Of a stretch of DNA of 64,000 nucleotides, positions 1-60,416 are shown piece by piece. The notes under the pieces were generated by a model. That model worked only from the letters and a program-made list of their open reading frames with translations, ran no database searches and was not told the origin of the DNA. Positions within the stretch are counted from its first letter, which is position 1. Each line of letters opens with the position of its first letter. The stretch is from NCBI GenBank assembly GCA_965218295.1, contig CBDCKN010000014.1, forward strand, positions 107,770 through 171,769, written 5' to 3'. The stretch comes from Longimicrobiales bacterium. GTDB taxonomy: Bacteria > Gemmatimonadota > Gemmatimonadetes > Longimicrobiales > Gaopeijiaceae. The position numbers and the translations under genes are program-made.

Positions 1-1951
1 CGGCGAACGTGGACGCGGCGCTGCGGAAGGCCCTGGAGAAGATACCGGCGGATCGGTTCACCTCGGCGCAGGACTTCGTGAGGGCGCTGGGTGATGAGCA
101 CTTCCGGTATGGGGAGGCAGTTGCGAGAGTCGATGGTGCGGTCGCGAGTCCGTGGAATCGAGTGGCGATCCTGGGTTGGAGCGCTGCTGCTGTATTTGCC
201 GTCACCCTCGGTTGGCCGCTCCTCCGTTCCGAGCCTCCCGAGCCTCCTGGGCCGATCACCCGGGTTTCCGTGCTGATGGGAGAAGATCAGTCCTTTCATT
301 CCAATTTCGGAGTACTCGACCTTTCGACCGATGGATCGCTCATGGTCTACAGAGGTCGAGGTGATGAAGGGCAACCTCAGGTGTGGGTGAGGCGGTGGGA
401 TGCCTTGGAGGCCACTCCGATCCGAAACACGGACGGGGCTTTCAGCCCGACGATTTCTCCTGACGGTCGCGAGGTGGTTTTTGGAGTGGCTGGCTCGATT
501 CGGGTCGTCCCCCTCCAGGGGGGTATCGCGGACCCTCACCGAGTCAGCCTGGTGCTGCCCAAGCTGGAGTCCGGAGGGTGATTGGGTCTATTACGTCAAC
601 GTGTCGCGAGGACTGAGCCGCGTGCCAGCGAGCGGTGGACCGCCCGAGGTTGTCACCCAGGTGGATAACACAGCCGGAGACGTTATCAATTTGTGGGTGG
701 ATGTGCTGCCGGGTGGCAGGGGCGTCTTGTACATGGCGGCGGGGGCTGGGAATACCAACCAAAGAATCCAAGCCCTGGACCTGGAAACCGGCGAGATCAA
801 GGATCTGACACCGGGCCAGACCCCACGGTACAGCCGCGCCACCGGCGATCTGCTCTTCATGGACGCGAACGAGGGCACCCTTTTGGCCGCCCCCTTCGAC
901 GCGAAGAAGCTGGAACTTACGGGCGCGGCGGTGCCAGTGGCGGAAGAAGTGCTGCAACACGCCCAGGCATGGCCGTTCTTCGACATATCCGCATCGGGCA
1001 GGCTTGTTTACCGGACAGGTAGGGGAGGGGATCTCGTCACCCCGGTATGGGTGGAGCGTGACGGAACCGTCCGAGAGGTCGATCCTGGATGGGAGTTTCC
1101 CGGCAACTTTGACCTTTCCAGTGTTGCGCTTTCCCCCGACGGCACCCGGCTCGTCACGTCGATCACGGACTCAGACGGGACCACAGACCTGTGGGTCAAG
1201 CAGCTGGACACCGGCCCTTTGTTCCGCCTCACGTTCGAGGGAACGGAGAACCTCAGGGCTCTGTGGTCGCGGGACGGACAATTCGTCACGTTCGTGTCGA
1301 ATCGTGCGGGACAACGGGATCTGTGGAGAAAGAAAGCGGACGGGAGTGGCCCGGCTGAGCTAGTGCTGGACAGGGAGCGGCCTCTCCAGGAATTCGTCTA
1401 TTCGCCCGACGGCACCTGGCTGGTCTTTGTGGAATCAGACGGCGGGACCGCCAACTCCGACATCTACGGCATACGCCCCGGGGTGGACAGCGTAGCGACT
1501 CCGTTGGTCACGGAGGGGTCAAGCGCCGATGAGATGTCACTTTCCCCCGACGGTCGCTGGCTCGCCCATACCTGGGTACAGGACGGCGATGTTCAGGTGT
1601 ACGTGCGTCCCTTCCCCGACGTTGATGCGGGCAGGTGGCAGATATCCACGACTAGGGGCGATGAGGACCGTGTGGGCACACAATGGTCGAGAGTTGTTCT
1701 ATCAGGGCACGACGAACGCTGACGAACAAATGGTTGCCGAAATCATCGGAGATCCATCGTTCGCGGTGGGGGAGCAGCGAGTCCTGTTTCCCTTGGCCAC
1801 CTACCTAATCGGGAACGGTCACGCGGGATACGACATCAGCCCGGATGACCAGCGATTGGTGATGCTGAAGGCCGTGGGGGGAGAGGACGACAGGCAATTG
1901 ATCCTTGTCGATAACTGGTTCGAGGAGTTGAAGGAGCGGGTGGGCAACTAA
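1..1951 (+). CDS. Ser/Thr protein kinase (C-terminal end) fused to a TM helix and a TolB/PD40 beta-propeller; 5'-partial, two apparent frameshifts (~520 and ~1657)
   Basis: ORFs 9-581, 400-1722 and 1529-1951 join into one protein: kinase tail KALEKIPADRFTSAQDF, TM segment, repeated SPDG/WSPEG blades, and the typical end LILVDNWFEELKERV. Both shifts lie at G runs. Confidence 0.8.
383..417 (+). repeat. 35-bp direct repeat, copy 1 (inside kinase gene)
   Basis: gtgggtgaggcggtgggatgccttggaggccactc, identical to 1960-1994. Confidence 0.9.
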
Positions 1952-1959
1952 CGGTCCCG

Positions 1960-1994
1960 GTGGGTGAGGCGGTGGGATGCCTTGGAGGCCACTC
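1960..1994 (+). repeat. 35-bp direct repeat, copy 2 (just after kinase stop)
   Basis: Identical to 383-417. Confidence 0.9.
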
Positions 1995-2062
1995 GAGAGT
2001 GCTGCGCCCAGGTGGCCTCCGTTGGGTCGCCTCATCAGAGGCCGGGAACCCATCCCGACCTG

Positions 2063-2084
2063 ACCGGGCCCGAAAGCCCGGTTT
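2063..2084. terminator. GC-rich hairpin, possible terminator between convergent genes
   Basis: accgggc-ccgaaa-gcccggt followed by a short T run. Confidence 0.4.
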
Positions 2085-2089
2085 CGGCA

Positions 2090-2275
2090 TTAGTAGCCTG
2101 CCATGAAGTGGATCAGCCTGGTCACGTCATCCAAGTCCAGGAGAAGGTGGTGGTTGCCGTCCGCGTCCACATTGTGGTCGGCGGGCACCCGCAGAATCAC
2201 GACGGGTGATCCGTCCTCCGCGAGTGGTATCTTAGTAACCGTCAAGCCAGCGATCTCTCGCTTCGTGCTACTCAC
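2090..2275 (-). CDS. small hypothetical protein (61 aa)
   Basis: GTG start with upstream GGAGG; protein-like composition. Confidence 0.45.
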   Translation of the reverse strand: MSSTKREIAGLTVTKIPLAEDGSPVVILRVPADHNVDADGNHHLLLDLDDVTRLIHFMAGY

Positions 2276-2412
2276 TCTGCGTCCCTCCGTTGGGGTTGTG
2301 GCTCGGGAGAATCTAACGCCCCCGATGCTCGGTCAGTTCCCGTACAGCGCCTCTCGACGAGTAGCGCCGCATAACGATTCTGTTAGGAGGCTCCTCCTCA
2401 GAAGGGAGTTTC

Positions 2413-2880
2413 GTGCTAGTTCAAGTCGGTGTGGATAGCCTCGGGTTGGACCGGAAGACCAAGATGCCCGTCGTCGTTCTCAAAGAGGAAGGCGGGGAGC
2501 AAGTGCTCCCCATTTGGATCGACCCCAATGAGGCCAGCGCCATTGCCAGGGGGCTCACCCAGATGAAGTTCTCCCGTCCACTGACCCACGACCTCCTAGT
2601 CTCCGTGTTGGAGAGCCTGGGCGGAGAACTCGAGAAGGTGGTCATCGGTCCGGTGGAGGGAAATCTTTTCTTCGCTGAGATGATCATGCGCCGACACGGA
2701 GAGGTCATCTCCATCGATGCGCGCCCGTCCGACTCAATAGCAGTCGCATTACGTATGGAGGCCGAGATCTTCGTGCACAGCGATCTGCTGGGCCCCGCCT
2801 CCGTCGAGTTGGCGGAAGATCAACCGTCTGCTACACATAGATTCCAATACAATCCATACGTGTCTGATAAGATTCTATAA
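2413..2880 (+). CDS. bifunctional nuclease (DUF151) family protein; last 17 aa supplied by the integrated element
   Basis: Motifs LPIWI, RPLTHDLL, IDARPSDSIAVA. Confidence 0.9.
   Translation: MLVQVGVDSLGLDRKTKMPVVVLKEEGGEQVLPIWIDPNEASAIARGLTQMKFSRPLTHDLLVSVLESLGGELEKVVIGPVEGNLFFAEMIMRRHGEVISIDARPSDSIAVALRMEAEIFVHSDLLGPASVELAEDQPSATHRFQYNPYVSDKIL
2818..2826 (+). repeat. attL core
   Basis: GATCAACCG, in frame as Asp-Gln-Pro of DUF151. Confidence 0.8.
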
Positions 2881-2988
2881 CTAGAGCTATTACAATGAGT
2901 TATGTAGGACACGCCCGGTTGCACTGTCGCTGTGTGTCCACTATGTTCCCGTACATGACATACGATACTTTATACGGGGACTCCCGAA

Positions 2989-4194
2989 TTGGATTTGCCC
3001 AAACACCGAGGCAGGCGCCCGCATAACGCACTCAGCGCGGCCTTCGTGCGCAGCGCCAAGCCCGGATACTACTGCGATGGGAACGGCCTCTATCTGCGTG
3101 TGGACCGATCGGGCGCGCGCCGATGGGAGCAGCGTCTGCGGATCCAGGGTCGAAACCGCACGCTGGGGCTCGGGGGCTACCAGCTGGTATCGCTGGCCGA
3201 GGCGCGCGAGAAGGCATTCACGAACCGCAAGATCGCGCGCTCGGGCGGTGATCCGCGTACCGAGCGGCACAAGGTCCGGGACATGCCCACGTTCGCCGAA
3301 GCGGCCGCCGGCGTTCTGGAACAGCTCCGGCCGGGCTGGCGCAGCGCCAGGCATGCGAAGGACTGGGTCTCCAGCCTGCGCGTCTACGCGTTCCCACAGC
3401 TGGGCCATCGACCGGTCGGCGAGATAACGACAGCCGACATCCTGGCGGTGCTGACACCGATCTGGCACGCCAAGCAGGTGACTGCCAGACGGGTGCGCCA
3501 GCGCATTGGGGCGGTGATGAAGTGGGCGGTGGCGATGGGGCTTCGGCCGGACAACCCCGCCAGCGATGTGCTCGGTCAAGCGCTTGGCCGACAGCGCGTC
3601 GTAGTCCGGCACATGCGCGCGTTGCCTCACTCGAAGGTCGCGGGCGCGATGGAGACGGTGCGGAAGTCGCACGCTTACCCGGCCACGAAACTCGCCTTCG
3701 AGTTCCTGGTGTTGACGGCGGCCCGCTCGGGAGAGGTTCGCTCGGCGCACTGGGATGAAATCGACCTGGAGGCTCGAGAGTGGACGGTTCCCGCCGAACG
3801 CACGAAGGCCCATCGCCCCCACAGGGTGCCGCTGTCCGGGCGCGCCGTGGAGATACTGAGCGAGGCGCGGACGCTCGGGGGCGGCAGCGGTCTCGTTTTC
3901 CCGTCGCCGGAGGGCCGCGCATCTGCCCACAGCAGACTCTCCACGCTGCTTCGAGACCTGGGTATCGCGGCCGTGCCGCACGGCTTCCGGTCGAGCTTCA
4001 GGGACTGGTGCGGCGAGTGTTCCAACGCACCGCGTGAAGTCGCCGAGGCCGCGTTGGCGCATGCGGTTCGTAACAAGGTGGAAGCTGCCTATGCGCGTTC
4101 GGACCTGTTCGAGCGCAGGCGCGTCCTGATGGACAATTGGGCTGCGTATCTGGCGGGCGAGCGTCTGGACCCGGAGGCCGAACCGGCTCGCTGA
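2989..4194 (+). CDS. P4-type tyrosine integrase with N-terminal arm-binding domain
   Basis: DGNGLYLRV...SLAEAREKA arm domain; catalytic R (ARSGE), K, HGFR, LAH, Y. Confidence 0.95.
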   Translation: MDLPKHRGRRPHNALSAAFVRSAKPGYYCDGNGLYLRVDRSGARRWEQRLRIQGRNRTLGLGGYQLVSLAEAREKAFTNRKIARSGGDPRTERHKVRDMPTFAEAAAGVLEQLRPGWRSARHAKDWVSSLRVYAFPQLGHRPVGEITTADILAVLTPIWHAKQVTARRVRQRIGAVMKWAVAMGLRPDNPASDVLGQALGRQRVVVRHMRALPHSKVAGAMETVRKSHAYPATKLAFEFLVLTAARSGEVRSAHWDEIDLEAREWTVPAERTKAHRPHRVPLSGRAVEILSEARTLGGGSGLVFPSPEGRASAHSRLSTLLRDLGIAAVPHGFRSSFRDWCGECSNAPREVAEAALAHAVRNKVEAAYARSDLFERRRVLMDNWAAYLAGERLDPEAEPAR

Positions 4195-4299
4195 TCCGCC
4201 GCGCTCGCAGTGTCGGCGGACGAGTCCGTCAGGCGCTGAAGAGCAGGGGCGCGAAGGCTGGCTCACGACCCGTATGTGGACGCCCCCCGGGTTGGCAAG

Positions 4300-4500
4300 C
4301 CTGACTTCGAACCGAGGTTGGTGGCAATCAGGTCCGGTACTGTCGTATGTCCGGCCTCTTGATGCAGCCCTCGTTGGCTGCGGGCCCGTATGGTGTTCGT
4401 GAGATCGGATCCAAATCGTTAGGTCGGGCTCGGTGGCCCTTCGGGTCATCCTGGTGTTTCCGATCCCGTCTTCCAGACCGTTTGCCCTTACTCGTTCTTG
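4300..4500 (-). ncRNA. putative bridge RNA / seekRNA of the IS1111-type element (boundaries approximate)
   Basis: Stem 4403-4409/4459-4465 encloses segments matching both halves of the insertion site; a second segment (4344-4350) matches the donor junction. Confidence 0.7.
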
Positions 4501-4564
4501 CGTCCTGCTGCCCACATCTCCCAGCAGCTTTCTCTGTTTGCGCTTCTCTCCTTTCATTGGCCGG

Positions 4565-5587
4565 TCAGGCGGCAGCGCGAACCCGATGGATCTCCTTCTT
4601 CGTGGTCAGCGCCCAGACCATCCGCGCCGTCCTGTTGGCGAGCGCCACCGCGACCAGCATCTTCGGCTTGCGTGCCAGCATCCTGGCCAGCCACGGATCC
4701 GTGATCTCGCCGCGCCGGATCGCGTTTTGGACGACCGCCATGGCTCCCGTGATCAAGAGCCGCCGGAGATCGCGCTGGCCCATCTTCGATATCCTGCCCA
4801 GCCTCGGCTTGCCGCCGGTGGTGTGCTGCCGCGGCACAAGGCCGAGCCAGGCCGAGAAGTCGCGCCCGCGCCGGAAGCTCTCCATCGGCGGTGCGAAGGC
4901 CTGCAGTGCCATCGCGGTGATCGGTCCGATTCCGGGGATTGTCATCAGCCGCGCCGTCTCTTCGCGCTCCCGTGCGCTCGCCCGGAGCTTCCTGTCGAAT
5001 CCATCGATCTTCTCATCGAGCTCGTCGATCCGCCCGAGCAGCAGCCATCCCAGCTCGACGACCGCCTCCGGCAGGCCGACGTCCCCGTCTTCCAGCACCC
5101 AGGCCAGTTGCCCGATCCGGGCCCTGCCCTGCGGAGCAACAACTCCGAACTCGGCGAGGTGACCCCGAAGGGCATTGATCGTCTGTGTGCGCTGGCGCAC
5201 CAGCAGGTCACGCGTGCGAAAGAGCATCCCCTGACCCTGCTGCGCTTCGGTCTTGACCGCCACGAAGCGCATGGTCGGACGCTGTGCGGCTTCCGAGATC
5301 GCCTCCGCGTCCGCCGCGTCGTTCTTCTGCCTCTTGACGAAGGGCTTCACGTAGATCGGGGGAACCAGCTTCACCTCGTGACCGAGGGCCACGATCTCCC
5401 GGCCCCAGTAGTGGGCGCCGGCGCATGCCTCCATCGCCACCGTGCAAGGCGGCTGCGCGGCGAGAAAACTCAGCAGCTTCCCGCGGCTCAGCTTCCTGCG
5501 GTACGCTACCGACCCGTTCGCCTTCGCCCCGTGTACCTGAAAGCTGCGCTTTGCCAGATCGATCCCGATGATGCTAACCTCCTCCAT
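4565..5587 (-). CDS. IS110-family DEDD recombinase/transposase
   Basis: GIDLAK, MEAC, KNDAADAEAI, IPGIGP, WLGLVPRQ..GGK, VALANR motifs. Confidence 0.95.
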   Translation of the reverse strand: MEEVSIIGIDLAKRSFQVHGAKANGSVAYRRKLSRGKLLSFLAAQPPCTVAMEACAGAHYWGREIVALGHEVKLVPPIYVKPFVKRQKNDAADAEAISEAAQRPTMRFVAVKTEAQQGQGMLFRTRDLLVRQRTQTINALRGHLAEFGVVAPQGRARIGQLAWVLEDGDVGLPEAVVELGWLLLGRIDELDEKIDGFDRKLRASAREREETARLMTIPGIGPITAMALQAFAPPMESFRRGRDFSAWLGLVPRQHTTGGKPRLGRISKMGQRDLRRLLITGAMAVVQNAIRRGEITDPWLARMLARKPKMLVAVALANRTARMVWALTTKKEIHRVRAAA

Positions 5588-5784
5588 TGGATGCCTCCTC
5601 CCTCAGATGGTCGATATCGCTCAGTACCATCTTGGCACATTGCGATGCCGCCGGGAGGGGGCGTCCACCCCATCGTTAGCAGTCATGAGCCAGCCTACCC
5701 CTTGGGGCCACGCTTCGCGGGTCCCCGGCAGGGGCTGGCGAGGGGCTGGGCCCCCTCTGACCCCCCCAACGGCAACAGCGCATC

Positions 5785-5892
5785 ATGAGCGCTGGACGCG
5801 CCGTGTGGGTGAAGATCCGCGCCAGCGAGGCGGAGCCTGCCGAGTGGCACGCTAAGGCGCGCTCCGCAGGCTTGACGCTGTCGGATCTGGTG
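5785..5892 (+). pseudogene. truncated MobC-like relaxosome accessory (ribbon-helix-helix) protein
   Basis: VWVKIRASEAEPAEWHAKARSAGLTLSDLV resembles a MobC N-terminus; runs into unrelated AT-richer sequence; no relaxase downstream. Confidence 0.6.
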
Positions 5893-6034
5893 CTGCGGAT
5901 TCAGCCTTTTGACACAGTACAAATAGGGCATGGAAACAATGCAATTATGCTATTGACGAGACGGTTTCAGCGAGCCCAAGATTTCCGTTGAAATCGCTGC
6001 TGGACTCCCATCTTTCGGACATTCAGGAATCCGA

Positions 6035-6373
6035 ATGAGCTGTCACCGAACCATCATCCGGCTGTCAGCGGTGCTAGCGGTTGTGGCCTTGGCCACGGGG
6101 TACGGGGACGGTGACAGCCCTGCCGCGCCTCCAACGCCAGAGCCCGCCCGTCCGACGAGTGCGGGTAGCGGACAGGGAACGGCAGACCTGGACCGTGCGG
6201 CGCTGGTCGCGCTCTACAACGCGACGAACGGGCCGAACTGGACCAACAATGACAACTGGCTGGCCGACGTGCCGCTGGAGGAGTGGTACGGGGTGGTGAC
6301 GGGCAGTGACGGGCGTGTTACACGACTCTCTCTGTGGGAGAACAATCTCACCGGCCCGATCCTCCCGAACTAA
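6035..6373 (+). pseudogene. truncated secreted leucine-rich-repeat protein
   Basis: Signal peptide, then DRAALVALYNATNGPNW...WYGV...GRVTRLSLWENNLTGPI (LRR N-cap plus first repeat), then stop. Confidence 0.75.
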
Positions 6374-6550
6374 CCACATATTATGTAACCGACATTATCA
6401 CAATATGTTAGAACATGTGGCCGCAAATGATGTATCACTCAGGATATACATTTCTGAGCGAGATTCCATGGGACCCAACCGGATGTCGGTGGATCAGATT
6501 CTGGTGATTGCCGCAGGCCAAATGCTACTGCCTGAGATCAGGATCGGCAG

Positions 6551-6860
6551 TCACCGTCCTCGGACCGGCAGCCTCCGGACCACCACGCTGGGCACATCGA
6601 ATTCACCAAGCTCAATGAACGCCGCCAGCCCGTTCGGGCCGAAGGCGTCGGGCATCTCGGTCGTCCCGGTGCGGTAGGTGCCGACGTATCCGCCCTCGGT
6701 CGTCAACACATCGATTGGGCCGTCCTCAAGAAGGCTCTCGCCTTGGCGCATCACCCAGATCCGGCCCTCCCAAGTAGTCTGCAATCTCAAGAGGACGGGT
6801 ATCTCGGGGTAGAAGGGCTGAATCTCGCCGAATTCCTCGCTCACGTTTCCGGAATCCACG
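6551..6860 (-). pseudogene. C-terminal fragment of a beta-propeller (NHL/6-bladed-like) protein
   Basis: GRIWVMR...IDVLTTEGGYVGT...ELGEFDVPSVVVRRL tail with no N-terminus. Confidence 0.55.
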
Positions 6861-7165
6861 GCTGTAGAACCGGTGACAGTCCACCGCGTCGGCTGGCTTA
6901 GACGCCCAAGGCGCGCTAGGTCGAGTCGTCCACGGGACGCCGGACACGCGTACGGTGCCCATGTTCTTGCCATACATCGGGGAGTCCGATGGCGGACAGC
7001 AGCCCATGCCGCCAAGTGTTCCAGTTCGACGCCGAGGGAGGCGCATCGCCCCAGGCAGGGGTTGGAGGCGTTGGCCATGCTTGTAGATTTCAGATGGTAT
7101 CGCAAAGGGACGCCGGGCTTTCCGCGAGGCTCCCCCAGAGGCGCAACCAGACAGGGAGAGCACCG

Positions 7166-9961
7166 ATGGTATCGACAATGAGACTCAGGGTTGCGCTGCT
7201 GGTCGTGTTCGCGATGGCAGCCACGGTGAGGGCCGCTGCGGCGCAAGGCACGCTCGAAGGAACGGTGACGGACGCGACCGACCGCCCGCTCGCGGGTGTG
7301 CGCGTCACTCTCGCAAGGCCCACGGTCTCGGATCCTGTCCAGACGAGACTCTCGACCACGGGCGACGCGGGCACCTACCGGATCGAGGGCATCCCGGCGA
7401 TCCCCCACGAGGTTCGGTTCACCCGCATCGGCTACGGTGCGCGGACGTTGGAGGCCTCGTTCGCCGACGACGAGACGACAAGGCTCGATGTGACGCTGTC
7501 CGAAGCGGTGATCGCGATGGAGAGGCTCGTCGTCATCGGCTCGCGCGCGCAGCCGCGAACCGCGACCCAGTCGATGGTGCCTCTTGACGTGGTTTCCGCG
7601 TCCGAACTCACGGGCCAGGGCACGCCCGATCTCAGCTCGCAGCTCAGGAGCGTCCTGCCCTCCTACAACGTGGCCGACGAACCGATCAGCGATGCCGCCA
7701 TGATCGCCCGCCCGGTGAGCATCCGGAACCTGGCGCCGGAGCAGACGCTCGTGATGGTCGACGGAAAGCGCCGCCACCGCTCCGCCGTCATCGTTCTCTG
7801 GAACGGGAACGGCGTCGCGGACGGGGCCCAGGGGCCCGACATCTCCACGCTGCCGAGCATCGCGATGAGCCGGGTCGAGGTCCTCCGCGACGGTGCATCC
7901 GCGCAGTACGGCTCCGACGCCATCGCGGGCGTGATCAACGTCGTGCCGAAGAACAACCGCTCGGGCGGCAGCTTCGAGGTTCGGGCCGGCCGCTACCAGG
8001 AGGGCGACGGCGACATGGTCACCGCCGCCGGCAACATCGGCCTCCCCTTGGGCGAGACCGGATTCCTCAGCCTGAGCGGCGAATTCGGCCAGTCGGACCC
8101 CACGAGCCGCAGCATTCAGCGAAATGACGCGGCCGCCCTTGGGGCCTCCGGCTTTCCCGTGCGGGACCCCGCGCAGATCTGGGGATCCCCCGACGTGGAC
8201 GACAACGTCAAGCTGTTCGCGAACACGGGCTACGCGTTCGGCGGCGGCACGGAACTCTACGGGTTCGGCAACTACCACACGAAGCGGGTCGAGGGCGGCT
8301 TCTACTTCCGGAACCCGAACACACGCGATGCCGTGTTCAGTATCGACGGCGGGGAGACTCTCCTCATCGGCGACGTTCTCGACGCCCGGGACGGCGTGCT
8401 CGACGGCTCGGCGAACTGTCCGGTCGTGCACATCGTGAACAACGTGCCCGATCGTGCAGCCATGGAGCGCGTCCGCAGCGACCCCAACTGTTTCTCCTTC
8501 CAGGAGCTGTTCCCGGGCGGCTTTACGCCGCAGTTCGGCGGGGACGCGTTGGACGCCTCCGCCGTCGGAGGGATCAAGGGAACGACCGCCGGCATCGAGT
8601 GGGACCTGAGCGCGGGCTGGGGCACGCACAGGATCGACTTCCTCATGAAGAACACGGTCAACGCGTCGCTCGGCCCGGAGACGCCGACGGAATTCCGGCC
8701 CGGGATCAACCAGCAGCGGGAGTTCAACCTCAACCTCGACGTGCACTACGAACTCGGGGAGGGGACCCTCCTCGCAGGGGGATTCGAGCGGCGCGTGGAG
8801 AGTTTCGAGATCGTGCGCGGCGACCGGGCCTCCTGGGAGCTCGGCCCCTACCTTGAGCAAGGGCTCAGCGCGGCCTCGAACGGTTTCCCGGGGTTCGGGC
8901 CGCTGTCCGAGGGGAGATGGGACCGGCGCAACGTCGCGGTCTACGGCGACGTGCACCGCGAAGGCGCGGACGACCGCTGGCAGGCGGGCCTGGCGCTCCG
9001 GCTCGAGGACTTCGAGGACTTCGGGACGACGTTCAACGGAAAGCTCTCGGGACGCCTGCGTCTCGTGGAGGGGTTCGCGCTCCGCTCCAGCGCGAGCACG
9101 GGGTTCCGGGCGCCGACCCCCGGCCAGCAGAATCTCCGGCACATCGGGACGATCTACGATCTGACGCTCATGGAGTTGGTGAACAGCGGCACGATCCCGC
9201 CCACCTCGGCGGTCGCGCGGCGCAGGGGCGGCACGCAGCTGCAACCCGAGACTTCGGTGAACGTGGCGCTGGGCGCCGCCCTCACCCGCGGACCGCTGAT
9301 CGTGACGGCGGACTACTTCCGGGTCGCGGTGTCCGACCGGATCAACCTCAGCACCGACTACACGCTCGAACCGCATGAGATCGACGAACTCGTCGCTGAG
9401 GGCGTCGAGGGCGCGCGCAACCTGGCCCGGTTCCGGTACTACAACAACGACTTCTCCACCCGCACGCAGGGAGTGGACCTGGTCGCCAGCTACTCGCCGC
9501 CGGCGCTGAGCGGGAATACGACCTTCAATCTGCTGTTCAACTACACGCACACGAGGGTCACGGAATACGCCGGAGAGGATCCGAATCGGCTGCCCTCGGC
9601 AGACGTACCGCTGCGCGTCCGGCAGCTGCGGGAGGCCCTGCCCACGACGCGGGGGAGCCTTTCGGCGACGCACCGGGCGGGACGCCTTCGCTTCTTCGGC
9701 AAGGTGGGCTACTTCTCGGGCTGGTACGACTGGCTCGACGATTACACCTACGGGGGCAAGGCTCTCGTGGACGCGGAAGTCGCCTACACGCTCGCCAACT
9801 CCGTGACCGTCACGCTCGGTGCCGAGAACCTGTTCAACACCTTCACGGACGTGAATCCGGGGGCCGCCGCGAACGTGGGGAACCTCTACAGCCAGAACTC
9901 GCCGTTCGGGTTCAACGGCGGCCTGTTCTACGTCCGGGCGAGCTACGCGTTCGACTGGTAG
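7166..9961 (+). CDS. TonB-dependent receptor with N-terminal carboxypeptidase-regulatory-like domain
   Basis: Signal peptide, LVVIGSR, VEVLRDGASAQYGSDAIAGVIN plug motif, GAENLFN, aromatic C-terminus. Confidence 0.95.
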   Translation: MVSTMRLRVALLVVFAMAATVRAAAAQGTLEGTVTDATDRPLAGVRVTLARPTVSDPVQTRLSTTGDAGTYRIEGIPAIPHEVRFTRIGYGARTLEASFADDETTRLDVTLSEAVIAMERLVVIGSRAQPRTATQSMVPLDVVSASELTGQGTPDLSSQLRSVLPSYNVADEPISDAAMIARPVSIRNLAPEQTLVMVDGKRRHRSAVIVLWNGNGVADGAQGPDISTLPSIAMSRVEVLRDGASAQYGSDAIAGVINVVPKNNRSGGSFEVRAGRYQEGDGDMVTAAGNIGLPLGETGFLSLSGEFGQSDPTSRSIQRNDAAALGASGFPVRDPAQIWGSPDVDDNVKLFANTGYAFGGGTELYGFGNYHTKRVEGGFYFRNPNTRDAVFSIDGGETLLIGDVLDARDGVLDGSANCPVVHIVNNVPDRAAMERVRSDPNCFSFQELFPGGFTPQFGGDALDASAVGGIKGTTAGIEWDLSAGWGTHRIDFLMKNTVNASLGPETPTEFRPGINQQREFNLNLDVHYELGEGTLLAGGFERRVESFEIVRGDRASWELGPYLEQGLSAASNGFPGFGPLSEGRWDRRNVAVYGDVHREGADDRWQAGLALRLEDFEDFGTTFNGKLSGRLRLVEGFALRSSASTGFRAPTPGQQNLRHIGTIYDLTLMELVNSGTIPPTSAVARRRGGTQLQPETSVNVALGAALTRGPLIVTADYFRVAVSDRINLSTDYTLEPHEIDELVAEGVEGARNLARFRYYNNDFSTRTQGVDLVASYSPPALSGNTTFNLLFNYTHTRVTEYAGEDPNRLPSADVPLRVRQLREALPTTRGSLSATHRAGRLRFFGKVGYFSGWYDWLDDYTYGGKALVDAEVAYTLANSVTVTLGAENLFNTFTDVNPGAAANVGNLYSQNSPFGFNGGLFYVRASYAFDW

Positions 9962-10771
9962 CGGGAAGGGCCTCGTCCAGGAACCTACGGTCGCAGTCCA
10001 ACACCAGTCCGCGAGTCCGCGAGTAACCGTTCGGGCAAACCGTGGGCTCGACCTCCTGCGGGTTCGCCCTTGATGGCGACAGGGCAACCGACGAAGCGTC
10101 CCTCCTCCACCTCCATGAGGACGGGGGCAGGGAGCGGGCATGCGACACATGGTGTCGGACCGATACGGTCGCTTCGCCTACCGCGTGACAGGACTTCGCG
10201 GCTCGCGATCCCATGGGGTAAGATAACCCTCAACCGCCCGAGCCATCCGTGTGTAACTATTCAAACTGACCCACTACTTCGATCGTGTAGGTGGTCCCGT
10301 CGACCGCGAACGACGTCTGGCTGAGGCTCCCGTCGTCTGGACTGAAGCCGTAGACGCCCCAACCACCCCAGCCGCCGGACGGTTCCACCTGGCCAAGCGT
10401 CAGACAGGCGGTCAGATGGCGTTAGCGCTCGGGCGCGTGGCGATCCGGGGCCGACACGTCCGTTCAGTAAGCGTTCGGCGGGGTGACTAGAGGCGCCTCG
10501 CCAGTACGTTCCCGAACGCCCTCGCCGTCGCGACGAGATTCCAACCTTCGGGATCGCCACGTCGTCATCTGCCGGGTCTTCCTCAGCCCCGCGCGACGCC
10601 CAAGGGAGCACCCGTCACGGGTTCCGCGAACGTACCGTAAGCTCCCGTGTAAGCGCCCGCCAATTATACGGGATCACATACGATAGAAACGAGTCGGACC
10701 AGAAACTACTGCATCCATAACTAACTACAGGTCATATACTTATGATGACATAGGGACAGGATAGACAGACT

Positions 10772-10837
10772 GATCAACCGGCCACGGAGAGCGATGTCGG
10801 AGCGGAGGAACCCGACACCCCAGCGTCCACAGACTAG
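10772..10837 (+). pseudogene. attR core plus displaced original 3' end of the DUF151 gene (DQPATESDVGAEEPDTPASTD*)
   Basis: From GATCAACCG, 21 codons and TAG follow in the DUF151 frame. Confidence 0.8.
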
Positions 10838-10890
10838 TGTTCCGTTTCACGGATGCACCGTGCCCTCGACTGGCCGAGACACTTTGGTAA
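10835..10890 (+). repeat. MITE-like repeat, internally deleted copy
   Basis: tagtgttccgtt...ggatgcaccgtgccctcgactggccgagacactttggtaacg, shared with 40520-40610 and 42982-43147. Confidence 0.85.
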
Positions 10891-10948
10891 CGCGGGTCGA
10901 TCCCAAGTAGCGCTCGGCGCGCAGTGAGAGCCGGCTGACCGGCCCGGC

Positions 10949-11332
10949 TCAGAACTCCTCCAGCAGCTTCCTGGCCTTCTTAGGGTTGTCGCAGACGATG
11001 GCGATCTCGATGAGGTCGTCCGTGATCCCGGTGACGTAGAGCGCCTCGAGGTTGATCCCCGCATCGCCGAGTCGGTTCGTGACGGCAGCGAGCTCGCCCG
11101 GCTTGTTCTCGAGTAGCACGGCGTGCACTTCGCTCTCCTCGAAACGGATGTTCGCTTCCTGGAATGCGCGGCGTGCTACTTCGATGTCGTCGGGTATGAT
11201 GCGCGCGATCGCGTGGCCGCCGACACTGACTACCGCCAGTGCCCTGATGTTGGCACCGCGTCGCGCGAGCGCCTGCGCCACGCGAGCGAGATCGCCTGGG
11301 TGATGCGTCAGTTGGATCGAGCAGTCCTTCAT
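10949..11332 (-). CDS. tandem ACT-domain protein
   Basis: HHPGDLARVAQALARRGANI and ENKPGELAAVTNRLGDAGINL repeats. Confidence 0.85.
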   Translation of the reverse strand: MKDCSIQLTHHPGDLARVAQALARRGANIRALAVVSVGGHAIARIIPDDIEVARRAFQEANIRFEESEVHAVLLENKPGELAAVTNRLGDAGINLEALYVTGITDDLIEIAIVCDNPKKARKLLEEF

Positions 11333-11664
11333 GGTCCTCTCCTGTGAAGACAGCGGAAGATACCAACAAGAGCCTCAGGTGCATCGCGGCATGTCGAGGT
11401 CCGGCCTGCAGTACAAGCCGCATGTGGTAACGCCCGATGTTCATTCAATGTCCACCGGATGGTCGTCATACGCCATCCGCAGTACGGCCTCGTACGTATA
11501 TTCACGACATGAACATACGTATACTCTCCAAAGAACAACTAGGCCAGCATCCCAAGAAGCGATAGCTGCTGGCGCGATGAACTCGAGACTCGCGCCTTTC
11601 TCTTGCGATCACCATACTTGGTCGCGCAGCCCGAGTGAGGCCAGCCCGGAGTCATTAGGCGGCA

Positions 11665-12895
11665 TGTACAGAGATGGTAATGACCTGACAGTTGGCCCTC
11701 GCCGGAGCTGTGTCTAGGCTGCCTTCGTCTTAGCCTCCTCCTTCCTGGCCTTTGCGGCCTTCCTGGCGTCGGTGAGACCGGCCTTGAAGACCTGATAGGG
11801 CGTGCGGCCCTCCATGGCTCGACCGCGGTGCGGCCGCTTCCGGTTGTAGGTCTCCAGATACGCCTCGAGGTCCTGCTGCATCTCCTCGACGGTCTCGTAC
11901 CAGGTGGTGCGGCCCTTCACCCTCAAGTGCTCGTCGAGGAGCGTGCGGTGGAAGCGCTCGATGAAGCCGTTGGACTGGGGCCTGCCCACCTTCGTCGTGC
12001 GGTGCTCGATGTCCTCGAGCTGAAGGAACAGCTCATATGGGTGACGGTCCGGACGGCCGCAGAACTCGCGGCCGTTGTCGCTGAGCACGGTCTTCACCCG
12101 GACCCGGTGCTCATCGAAGAACGGCAACACGTCGTTATTCATCACCTGCACCGCCGTGAGCGGGAGCTTGCTCGTGTAGAGCCGGCCCCAGGCGTAGCGG
12201 CTGAAGCAATCGAGCACGGTCTGCAGGTACACCTTGCCGACCCCCTTCAGCGTTCCGACGAAGAACGTGTCCACGGCGACGAGGTCGCCCGGGTAATGGA
12301 CTTCGATGTGGCGCTCCCGGAACTCGGGACTGAAGCGCTCCAGCAGCTCGATCTGCTCGTCGGTCAGCTTCAGCTTCCGTTCCCTGGCCGTCTCTTCGAG
12401 CCTGAGCAGCCGTTCGTGCTTCGTGGTGAGGCCATGCCGGCTCCACACGCCCCGTACGCCTCCTGAGCTCACCTGGATCCCTCCGAGCAGCAACTCGTCC
12501 GCGACCCGCTGAGCTCCGTGCGTCGGAGCCTCCAAGGCGTGGGCCAAGACCGCCTGCTCAATCTCTTCACTCACCCGGTTCGGGTGCGGTCCCTTCGGCC
12601 CCGGAAGCTGGTCGATCAGCCCCTCGGCCCCGTAAAGCTGGAAGTTCCTCCTGATCTCGTAGAACTGCTGCCGGCTGTAGCCCACGATCTTGCACGCCTT
12701 GCTCACGTTGCCGAGCTCCTGGGCCAACTGTAGCAGGCTCAGCTTGCGGCGCGCTATCTTCTCCCCCTGGACGGTGGTCATCTTCTCTCCCGTGCTAAGT
12801 GAGTGACTTCGACATCTCTCAATTAGCTCCGGCGAGGGCGGCTGGCCACCGTCCTCTCTCGTGGTCAACTGTCAGGTGAATACCGTCTCAGCACA
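11665..12895 (-). mobile_element. IS481 family element, copy 1 (1231 bp)
   Basis: TGT...ACA ends with ~33-bp imperfect TIR; flanks ggcggca/cacggca match only partly; same sequence as 59186-60416. Confidence 0.93.
11714..12781 (-). CDS. IS481 family transposase
   Basis: HTH N-terminus, rve core (VDTF, SDNGREF, PQSNGFIERFHRT); likely start MTTVQG. Confidence 0.93.
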   Translation of the reverse strand: MTTVQGEKIARRKLSLLQLAQELGNVSKACKIVGYSRQQFYEIRRNFQLYGAEGLIDQLPGPKGPHPNRVSEEIEQAVLAHALEAPTHGAQRVADELLLGGIQVSSGGVRGVWSRHGLTTKHERLLRLEETARERKLKLTDEQIELLERFSPEFRERHIEVHYPGDLVAVDTFFVGTLKGVGKVYLQTVLDCFSRYAWGRLYTSKLPLTAVQVMNNDVLPFFDEHRVRVKTVLSDNGREFCGRPDRHPYELFLQLEDIEHRTTKVGRPQSNGFIERFHRTLLDEHLRVKGRTTWYETVEEMQQDLEAYLETYNRKRPHRGRAMEGRTPYQVFKAGLTDARKAAKARKEEAKTKAA

Positions 12896-24695: not shown

Positions 24696-25469
24696 ATGGA
24701 GCAAATGAGACCGATGATCGCGGTGGCGGCGCTGCTCGTGCTGGGGTTAGCGAGCCTTTTGAGCGCTCCTGCGGTCGGGCGCGCGCAGGAGGTGGTGCCG
24801 GACTGGCTGCTGAGCGTCCGTCTTCCGAACGCGGGCGCCAAGTCCGTCATGACTCCCACCGGATGGGGTGCGGCCTACGGCTCTATCTTCGCCGGCGCAG
24901 GGGTGTCCGAGCGGAATCCCTATCTGCCCAGTTCGGATGGCGTGATGGCGCTGGGCGTCGGGGTCGGGGATCCTGTGCTCAATGCCGGCCTCCAGCTTGG
25001 AGTTACGGTCTCCGACCTCAGCGAGTTTGACAACTATGCATACTCGTTCAAGCTGCATCGCTACTTAGGGCGGGGAACCGCCATCGCAGTGGGTGGCGAG
25101 AGCCTGCTGACCGGTGGTCCCCTCGTCGATGACTTAGGCGAGACGTTCTATCTGGTGGTGAGCCACGTCGTACAAGGGGTGGCATCGCCCCGCCCCGGTG
25201 TCGGCCGTCTCCACTTGAGCGCCGGCGTGGGGTCTGGGCGCTTTGCCAATAGGAGCCCCCGGGACACGTCGGAGGGGAAGGGTGAGAACGGGACCTGGGT
25301 GTTCGGCAACGCGGCCGTGGAAGTGGCGAAGGACCTGAACGTCCTCGTGGAGTGGAGCGGGATCAACCTCCATGCGGGCGTGAGCAAGGCGTTTCAGGTC
25401 GGCGACGTGGCGATCTCGCTTTCGTTGGCCGCTGCGGACTCGAGACGGCTCCCTGGAGGCGGATTTTGA
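24696..25469 (+). CDS. secreted/outer-membrane beta-rich hypothetical protein, probably 3'-truncated
   Basis: Signal peptide, TPTGWGA, GVGSGRF, VEWSG strands; tail after ~25438 looks unrelated. Confidence 0.6.
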   Translation: MEQMRPMIAVAALLVLGLASLLSAPAVGRAQEVVPDWLLSVRLPNAGAKSVMTPTGWGAAYGSIFAGAGVSERNPYLPSSDGVMALGVGVGDPVLNAGLQLGVTVSDLSEFDNYAYSFKLHRYLGRGTAIAVGGESLLTGGPLVDDLGETFYLVVSHVVQGVASPRPGVGRLHLSAGVGSGRFANRSPRDTSEGKGENGTWVFGNAAVEVAKDLNVLVEWSGINLHAGVSKAFQVGDVAISLSLAAADSRRLPGGGF

Positions 25470-25569
25470 ACGCGGATCGGCGAGGGTCGGTGCTGATCGG
25501 CGAGTGCACATCAGACAACGGGGTGCATGTGCACCGAAACGCCATTTCCATGTGCGCGCCAGCGCTCCC

Positions 25570-26139
25570 TTATGTGGCTGGCTGTCTTACAGTTTCGTCT
25601 GAAGCGGGATCACCGACGATGAGCGGGGTGTCCCCGATCTCGCTTCGCAGGTAGTCGACCTGGTCGCGCTTCTCGCAGATCAGCACGACCTGTCTCCGGA
25701 CCGACAGGAGCTCTCTGGTGGTGTAGGCAGCCGTATCTCCTGCCCCGCACACGATCAAGTGCCCCGACATGCTTGCGATGGTCTTCTCCAACTTCCGTCT
25801 CCTGAAGACGTGCCCGATCTGTCCCTCGACAATGAAGGCCGTTGCGGTCGTGACAAGATAGAGCACGCCGCCCATCCCCACGAGAATGAGTAAGACCGTG
25901 AAGATCCGCCCGCCGGGACGGGCCGTCATGTCCACGATTTCACCAAACCCCACCGTGGTGAGGGTGATGGCCGTCATGTAGAAGGCATCCACCCAGCCGA
26001 CGCCTGGGTCGATGACGCGATATCCGACGATCCCCACGAGCATGACGGCGAGGATGAACAGTGCGGCGGAGCCCAGGCGGAGCCTCAGCTGTCGCAGATC
26101 CTCATCCAGTTCGGTGGGCGAGACGTCGTATACGTTCAA
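25570..26139 (-). pseudogene. two-TM potassium channel with truncated TrkA-N (RCK) domain
   Basis: TTVGFG selectivity filter, HLIVCGAG; stops just after IVGDPASDE. Confidence 0.75.
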
Positions 26140-59185: not shown

Positions 59186-60416
59186 TGTACAGAGATGGTA
59201 ATGACCTGACAGTTGGCCCTCGCCGGAGCTGTGTCTAGGCTGCCTTCGTCTTAGCCTCCTCCTTCCTGGCCTTTGCGGCCTTCCTGGCGTCGGTGAGACC
59301 GGCCTTGAAGACCTGATAGGGCGTGCGGCCCTCCATGGCTCGACCGCGGTGCGGCCGCTTCCGGTTGTAGGTCTCCAGATACGCCTCGAGGTCCTGCTGC
59401 ATCTCCTCGACGGTCTCGTACCAGGTGGTGCGGCCCTTCACCCTCAAGTGCTCGTCGAGGAGCGTGCGGTGGAAGCGCTCGATGAAGCCGTTGGACTGGG
59501 GCCTGCCCACCTTCGTCGTGCGGTGCTCGATGTCCTCGAGCTGAAGGAACAGCTCATATGGGTGACGGTCCGGACGGCCGCAGAACTCGCGGCCGTTGTC
59601 GCTGAGCACGGTCTTCACCCGGACCCGGTGCTCATCGAAGAACGGCAACACGTCGTTATTCATCACCTGCACCGCCGTGAGCGGGAGCTTGCTCGTGTAG
59701 AGCCGGCCCCAGGCGTAGCGGCTGAAGCAATCGAGCACGGTCTGCAGGTACACCTTGCCGACCCCCTTCAGCGTTCCGACGAAGAACGTGTCCACGGCGA
59801 CGAGGTCGCCCGGGTAATGGACTTCGATGTGGCGCTCCCGGAACTCGGGACTGAAGCGCTCCAGCAGCTCGATCTGCTCGTCGGTCAGCTTCAGCTTCCG
59901 TTCCCTGGCCGTCTCTTCGAGCCTGAGCAGCCGTTCGTGCTTCGTGGTGAGGCCATGCCGGCTCCACACGCCCCGTACGCCTCCTGAGCTCACCTGGATC
60001 CCTCCGAGCAGCAACTCGTCCGCGACCCGCTGAGCTCCGTGCGTCGGAGCCTCCAAGGCGTGGGCCAAGACCGCCTGCTCAATCTCTTCACTCACCCGGT
60101 TCGGGTGCGGTCCCTTCGGCCCCGGAAGCTGGTCGATCAGCCCCTCGGCCCCGTAAAGCTGGAAGTTCCTCCTGATCTCGTAGAACTGCTGCCGGCTGTA
60201 GCCCACGATCTTGCACGCCTTGCTCACGTTGCCGAGCTCCTGGGCCAACTGTAGCAGGCTCAGCTTGCGGCGCGCTATCTTCTCCCCCTGGACGGTGGTC
60301 ATCTTCTCTCCCGTGCTAAGTGAGTGACTTCGACATCTCTCAATTAGCTCCGGCGAGGGCGGCTGGCCACCGTCCTCTCTCGTGGTCAACTGTCAGGTGA
60401 ATACCGTCTCAGCACA
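59186..60416 (-). mobile_element. IS481 family element, copy 2
   Basis: Same ends and identical translation as copy 1; flanked by direct repeat cccggtt (59179-59185, 60417-60423). Confidence 0.95.
59235..60302 (-). CDS. IS481 family transposase
   Basis: Identical translation to the copy at 11714. Confidence 0.93.
   Translation of the reverse strand: MTTVQGEKIARRKLSLLQLAQELGNVSKACKIVGYSRQQFYEIRRNFQLYGAEGLIDQLPGPKGPHPNRVSEEIEQAVLAHALEAPTHGAQRVADELLLGGIQVSSGGVRGVWSRHGLTTKHERLLRLEETARERKLKLTDEQIELLERFSPEFRERHIEVHYPGDLVAVDTFFVGTLKGVGKVYLQTVLDCFSRYAWGRLYTSKLPLTAVQVMNNDVLPFFDEHRVRVKTVLSDNGREFCGRPDRHPYELFLQLEDIEHRTTKVGRPQSNGFIERFHRTLLDEHLRVKGRTTWYETVEEMQQDLEAYLETYNRKRPHRGRAMEGRTPYQVFKAGLTDARKAAKARKEEAKTKAA

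Follow-up and report, generated by a model that had tools for sequence, protein, structure and literature searches.

The window, meaning the whole 64,000-nucleotide stretch of Longimicrobiales DNA analysed here, contains an integrative element of 7,954 bp that encodes an intact P4-type integrase and carries GATCAACCG at both ends (2818-2826 and 10772-10780, + strand). The element interrupts a gene for a DUF151/BFN-domain protein (PF02577; 2413-2880, + strand), the second such paralogue in the genome, which encodes 155 amino acids when integrated. The displaced 3′ end of this gene, comprising 18 codons and a stop, lies beyond the element at 10781-10837 on the same strand. The window was found to contain no tRNA or tmRNA genes. 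An earlier note on this DNA had described a P4-type element with precise ends at a non-tRNA site, and the integrase domains, the paired terminal blocks, and the protein-coding target all agree with that description.

The stop codon of the displaced tail forms the first bases of a dispersed MITE-like repeat (10835-10893), for which BLAST gives 59 matches in the genome. Copies elsewhere end in inverted termini, and the copy at 10835-10893 has lost its right end. The host flank continues with an ACT-domain gene (PF01842; 10949-11332, − strand) and an IS481-family transposase at 11714-12868, of which a same-length ORF at 59235-60389 is likely a second copy. At the start of the window, a beta-propeller (PD40) gene at 1-1951 is spread over three frames (9-581, 400-1722, and 1529-1951) through frameshifts or assembly errors.

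Gene content of the element

The integrase is a P4/IntA-type tyrosine recombinase of 401 amino acids with an open frame at 2989-4194 (+ strand). Its Arm-DNA-bind_3 (PF13356), Phage_int_M (PF22022), and Phage_integrase (PF00589) domains all score above cut-off, and the PRK09692 model scores below its own cut-off. Residues R246, K273, H331, R334, H358, and Y368 were located and are presumably the catalytic R-K-H-R-H-Y set.

An IS110-family insertion sequence occupies approximately 4271-5673 (− strand), with a transposase at 4565-5587 that scores above the NF033542 cut-off. Contigs of all four sequencing runs compared join 4270 to 5674, which is the IS110-empty form. The IS110 element has sub-terminal inverted repeats (4240-4300 and 5650-5710) and sits in a hairpin directly downstream of the integrase, and this hairpin region recurs at many loci. 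Further cargo consists of a TonB-dependent receptor (PF00593, PF07715, and PF13620; 6989-9961, + strand) whose true start is likely near 7167. Between them, a 112-aa ORF (6035-6373, + strand) gave no match in Pfam or NCBIfam and is likely a fragment. The element contains neither alpA nor a recognised relaxase gene, and apart from its integrase it does not match the backbone of the conjugative element described below. Cargo pieces were detected at low depth in runs X1 and X2, with no linkage to the DUF151 site. Inside another P4-type integrase gene (G000:C13:196895-199824), a sister element matches the window element over 2.9 kb at 93.5% identity and has IS110 at the same place.

Element ends and core register

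The 9-mer GATCAACCG is by itself at chance level, with two copies reached in 20 of 100 shuffles and 60 copies in the host genome. The element boundaries were accepted because of its position together with the empty allele of the locus. General repeat finding across 1500-12500 returned chance families only.

Candidate arm-type sites, to which the integrase is predicted to bind, lie near both ends: CCCGTACA, ACATACGATA, and TATACGGG at 2948-2978, and CCCGTGTAA, TATACGGG, and ACATACGATA at 10644-10685. The 10-mer ACATACGATA occurs at 2958 and 10676, a pairing reached in 0/100 shuffles, and the 3.57-Mb genome holds three copies, each at an element end. TATACGGG occurs at 2971 and 10665, and the arm-like motifs reported earlier near both ends are these two. 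The region at 10211-10768 forms a conserved right end, with 96.5% identity to a virB4-inserted element from another genus.

Four relatives at the virB4 site carry AGCAGA or AGTAGA, then 7 bp, then TCTGCT. Scored against the register AGCAGA-7 bp-TCTGCT, their arms match at 6/6, 6/6, 5/6, and 5/6, and the window element, with a variant left arm, matches at 3/6. Because relatives show this register, the overlap exchanged by the window element is likely the 7-bp TCAACCG, at 2820-2826 in attL and 10774-10780 in attR. The inverted repeat that had been predicted around the circle junction is present in the sequence, but its 9-bp spacer is likely off register; a core built on that spacer was rejected, as the arms of relatives flank 7 bp. 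No circle (attP) junction appeared among the contig joints listed for the four runs, which are represented by contigs only. In nine elements the identity block at the ends spans only 7-11 bp, and attP contains no replacement sequence.

At the left end of the element (2827-2880, + strand) the likely core arm TCTGCT comes first, and chance read-through of this DNA gives DUF151 a 17-residue new tail. The same DNA also follows virB4, in a different reading frame, in 10 other left ends.

The DUF151 target gene

Like other DUF151/BFN proteins (PF02577; TM0160), the host protein has the full domain. PF02577 covers residues 21-132 (E 5e-36) and the TM0160 structure (PDB 1vjl and 1sj5) aligns with residues 6-136, with the crossover at residue 138. 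The tail reads ...DQPSATHRFQYNPYVSDKIL in the integrated state and ...DQPATESDVGAEEPDTPASTD in the empty state, the latter joined in silico, and both read as first described. The other DUF151 copy of the genome is located on C1, is 71% identical to the window paralogue, and is canonical. This copy carries the conserved motif ...L.PED.GRF.. at its end, as does every one of the 29 best-hit DUF151 genes from relatives, whereas the window paralogue lacks the motif in either state. Two congeners show the C1-type gene only. In another genus, a second DUF151 gene (L034; G011:C1 near 499622) has a short tail without the conserved motif and carries no island.

The empty allele is represented by one 178-nt contig in each of runs X3 and X6, which come from two studies. 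These contigs span 2706-2826 with 0 and 1 mismatch and run 57 letters past 2826; the 30 of these letters that are shown agree with the sequence from 10781 on, apart from 1 and 2 differences, placing the displaced tail directly after 2826. X3 and X6 contain the empty form only. Contigs of run X4 end at 2826 with no continuation among those listed, and run X2 does not cover the junction. In a genome of another genus (G128), the DUF151 orthologue is 85% identical, has an empty site, and ends ELAEDQPATEL*, four residues past the site. G128 was considered as a control in which the element and an empty DUF151 gene would occur together, and was found to have no element ends. The empty allele in the X3 and X6 contigs together with the empty G128 orthologue indicates that the insertion is real and likely strain-level. 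The earlier expectation for relatives without the island held in one respect, since DUF151 does run into 10781 onward in X3 and X6, and lacked support in another, since the ACT gene is not downstream in G128. The empty-allele contigs themselves end at 10837, short of the ACT gene.

That the two junctions are an assembly chimera, joining the DUF151 locus to an element located elsewhere, is extremely improbable. Element ends are multi-copy in the genome, and among the contigs listed for the four runs none bridges 2826/2827 from DUF151 into the element, as a chimera would allow. However, the junctions form a reciprocal pair at a single 9-bp block that is in register with the family overlap, and they lie within a 172-kb contig, so a chimera would require two coordinated errors.

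Because the fold ends before the crossover, the conserved motif is absent either way, and the displaced tail is not conserved, the tail swap likely has no function and likely does nothing to the host protein. The earlier note had described a change of the host protein's tail and offered a new target specificity as one option. Read this way, DUF151 would be a dedicated target and the element a switch between two C-terminal tails, and the clean reciprocal insertion, the near-full-length protein in both states, and the conservation of the site in the empty orthologue of another genus accord with it. This account is nonetheless very unlikely. Of the 15 left ends of this type and of the 139 integrase loci, one each lies at DUF151; the new tail is an ordinary left end whose frame differs from the virB4 frame; and the displaced tail, which ends at a dispersed repeat, shows no conservation. 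Furthermore, the gene is a second paralogue beside a canonical copy kept on C1, the crossover falls past the folded domain, and the exclusively empty X3 and X6 contigs and the unbridged left junction also count against a switch.

Preferred insertion in virB4 of a conjugative element

A search of 314 genomes, with two candidates scored per genome, located the element left end and integrase start as DNA of 95-97% identity in six genomes from five other genera. Ends were then gathered from the host genome and ten chosen relatives; some were present in nine genomes, which had been chosen for holding the element end. Across these nine, 10 of 15 left ends of the TCAACCG type, in six genomes, come after one and the same codon (~205) of virB4/trbE, and 10 of 13 right ends are followed by the remainder of virB4. 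The flanks outside virB4 all differ from one another, several have overlap mismatches, and DUF151 appears among them once.

At TCAACCG, virB4 is split by four complete elements that are 4.3-13.5 kb long. Once they are removed in silico, three of the loci yield a full-length virB4 match and one a partial match; a fifth pair of ends at the virB4 site is 54 kb apart. The target gene is similar to TrbE/VirB4 (E 1e-64), with a score under the curated cut-offs. The virB4 stretch with the target site was found in 59/314 genomes, and the overlap is kept in 27/30 intact copies examined. In one genome (G001), a single virB4 gene is struck at both codon ~205 and codon ~681.

Seven integrases, of which four are at virB4, share 96.5-97.6% identity with the window integrase, which groups with the virB4-site integrases (87/93 support) in a close tree that is weakly resolved overall (4/17 branches starred). 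Because near-identical relatives mostly cut one fixed virB4 spot, the DUF151 landing is likely stray, and the off-target option that the earlier note had left beside a new specificity gains support. With high probability, therefore, this P4-type island entered the tail of the second DUF151 gene by an off-target crossover, its near-identical relatives residing mostly at one virB4/trbE site.

In the host genome, the C13 virB4 site holds a right end and C15 carries one intact virB4. As the latter has the 7-bp overlap, a primary-type site was seemingly passed over. The C15 gene has CA in place of GA next to the overlap, an "escape mutation" that may have favoured the stray landing; this is only a hint because half of the intact virB4 copies (15/30) also lack GA.

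Since 5/15 left ends lie outside virB4, several with overlap mismatches, the element is less strict in its choice of site than a single target plus occasional errors would imply. Many element ends are orphans or mispaired. In G128, virB4 is split at TCAACCG across two contigs (L497, G128:C2 near 26321; L498, G128:C3 near 1949687) with each half beside foreign DNA. The two foreign flanks jointly form a 1,067-codon open frame, and element ends were not found in that genome. This arrangement looks like a reciprocal rearrangement via a secondary att site. Elsewhere, no relative above 50% identity was found in the plasmid collection, and a metagenome scan gave nothing above 70%.

These observations invite a different account, in which the island is a loosely specific, transposon-like tyrosine-integrase element without any satellite-helper relationship. 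Under this account virB4 would be just the commonest of many acceptable sites, since the island arrives with conjugative elements and these exist in multiple copies. The unrelated flanks of 5/15 left ends and 3/13 right ends, some with at least one overlap mismatch, the many orphan or mispaired ends, and the reciprocal crossing at TCAACCG of virB4 and the 1,067-codon frame in G128 all fit loose specificity. It is nevertheless unlikely: the exact 9-mer occurs 60 times in the host genome, yet 10/15 left ends fall at one virB4 codon in six genomes. In the wider screen described below, ten sites recur in at least two genomes and site labels track the integrase tree (16 changes versus 33-40, with kin not independent).

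Sister integrases and the wider range of targets

Sister integrases of 83-88% identity share the same element ends and use other 7-bp overlaps. The TCGCTCA overlap is found in virB11, with three complete elements, and a full-length match is restored in two (in the third the other strand was picked). The CGCCACG overlap lies at virB4 codon ~681, and the TGATCCG overlap lies inside other P4-type integrase genes. This series suggests that the overlap alone may set the target.

The range of targets was screened at 139 integrase loci in 12 genomes of the host's family by looking 100-200 bp upstream for a broken-off reference protein, with helper proteins and DUF151 as the only references. A broken helper-backbone or P4-integrase gene was present at 54 loci and DUF151 at 1, and the 84 loci without a match include apparent integrases of the helper itself. 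The 54 loci fall at 16 sites, ten of which are used in at least two genomes. Helper-backbone and P4-integrase genes make up 1.7% of the host genome; because mobile elements cluster, recurrence at one codon is better evidence than this share.

A tree of 135 loci, which omits three loci below 40% identity and one short locus, contains 51 labelled rows whose 16 states need 16 changes, compared with 33-40 in 200 shuffles. Because kin are not independent, the tree goes no further than showing that sites are shared among related integrases. Right-end mapping covered the close clade. In a screen of 107 integrase loci that included loci of the host genome, most of the distant ones (Vicinamibacterales and others) have no upstream helper gene, and a few sat in ardC or other integrase genes. 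The evidence for the tropism is therefore confined to the host's family.

Several individual loci add detail. Two different integrase elements interrupt a helper virD4-like gene (G000:C15:497990-529917), one near codon 83 and one near codon 271. A virB11-type right end (L045; G002:C4 near 483317) lies in what we take from its peptide to be an ABC-F ATPase gene, another off-target landing. At L160 (G001:C1 near 2722850), the element left end is interrupted after ~107 bp by what is presumably a group II intron reverse-transcriptase region.

The probable conjugative helper and its candidate transfer origin

The helper gene order is integrase, alpA, trbC, virB3, virB4, trbI, an unassigned ORF, trbL, virB8, a 323-aa ORF, virD4-like, virB11-like, and ardC. 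With an integrase, VirB2/3/4/6/8/10/11-like genes, and a coupling protein, it fits an ICE (integrative and conjugative element) of the MPF-T type, although the VirB4 and VirD4 models score below curated cut-offs.

The 323-aa ORF between virB8 and virD4 (L318:12442-13410) has at least 2,686 homologues and gave no match at E 0.001 in Pfam, Atlas, PDB profile, or Foldseek searches. Its structural model (pLDDT 88.8) has weak winged-helix matches only, confined to the N-terminal part. The protein is a candidate for a new relaxase or replication protein. Searches for a recognised relaxase in the helper, using Pfam, PDB, and Foldseek on the candidate ORF, found none.

Between the 323-aa ORF and virD4 lies a hairpin-rich, non-coding segment, and stretches of it measuring 117-488 bp or more are present in six of the eight complete relatives. 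The segment has 13 matches in the host genome and is absent from the window element. It is a candidate transfer origin. A solitary 141-bp piece of it lies elsewhere in the window, at ~25457-25597.

Proposed mechanism

The integrase would bind arm sites at both ends and, likely, core arms around the 7-bp overlap, and it would exchange strands with any site that offers the overlap and a passable core arm. The DUF151 and virB4 sites would then have GATCAACCG in common by chance. Insertion at virB4 brings no replacement sequence and cuts the gene ahead of the P-loop (residue ~455). Given this position of the break and an identity block of only 7-11 bp, VirB4 function would be lost, and because virB4 is cut without replacement sequence, helper transfer would need prior excision. 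Release may occur upon helper induction, perhaps through the helper AlpA-domain protein. The window copy has neither the candidate origin segment nor alpA and is thus likely stranded unless helped in trans.

The island family likely hitches rides on conjugative elements. A more ambitious proposal is that these islands are ICE-embedded satellites, forming an undescribed radiation of P4-type integrases specialised on one family of conjugative elements with at least 16 sites in virB4, virB11, virD4, virB8, ardC, an unassigned backbone gene, and the helper integrase. Such islands would change target by exchanging the 7-bp overlap, keep the helper silent for as long as they are integrated, bring along a copy of its transfer origin, and depart once helper AlpA triggers excision. 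This proposal is tentative, with a probability somewhat under one half.

Relation to known systems

P4/CP4-57 (IntA)-type islands use tRNA, tmRNA, or gene ends as integration sites. The window element resembles these islands, for which the available part of PMC12884075 also served as a comparison, in its integrase domain make-up, an integrase adjoining attL, a short att core, and variable cargo. In contrast, its integration site lies within a protein gene that insertion does not restore, and the window contains no tRNA.

The island works in the manner of a helper-embedded satellite without being an HE-PICI. A parallel is found in the helper-embedded PICIs (HE-PICIs), as described in sections of PMC10111431, which use 14 sites in nine helper genes with site groups that follow the integrase tree. 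These sections report 28 off-target chromosomal copies beside 491 on-target copies, attP without replacement sequence, a 7-bp strand-exchange segment that must match in tyrosine integrases, AlpA as the HE-PICI excisionase, and demonstrated excision. Going by these sections, both families consist of one tyrosine-integrase clade with many sites in helper genes, off-target copies, and no replacement sequence. They differ in that the helper here is a conjugative element rather than a lambdoid prophage, primase, capsid, and cos parts are absent, and off-target ends are more frequent (5/15 compared with 28 beside 491). Excision is demonstrated for HE-PICIs (PMC10111431, in part), whereas the island described here is known from sequence alone.

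Streptococcal and clostridial integrative and mobilizable elements (IMEs) reside inside traG (virD4), maff2, and snf2 of Tn5252-type ICEs, with more than one site per gene. According to the portions of PMC5357655 and PMC5704250 available, the gene-disrupting IMEs encode serine integrases and their own relaxase, excision on ICE induction has been proposed, and IME_oriT elements use tyrosine integrases to target the oriT nic site. The islands of this family, like the traG-type IMEs in these portions, are small integrative elements that break conserved genes of a conjugative element. Unlike them, they use P4-type tyrosine integrases and a Gram-negative-type conjugation system, the window element has no recognised relaxase, and the targets are virB4, virB11, virD4, virB8, ardC, and integrase genes. 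In literature comprising few subscription papers and no supplements, no report was found either of virB4 as a target of P4-type integrases or of an att site in DUF151, and TIGER/Islander may hold such islands. The accessible part of PMC12084326 contains nothing on such targeting.

Biological significance

The DUF151 insertion by itself matters little, as the element likely strayed there, into a dispensable tail. More weight falls on the island family, which would carry the concept of helper-embedded satellites over from phages to Gram-negative-type conjugative elements and which moves cargo across genera (95-97% identity at the DNA level). Because a natural series of integrases that are 83-97% identical uses four 7-bp overlaps, how tyrosine integrases change target is directly testable. 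Finally, secondary-site use may drive chromosome rearrangements in these bacteria.
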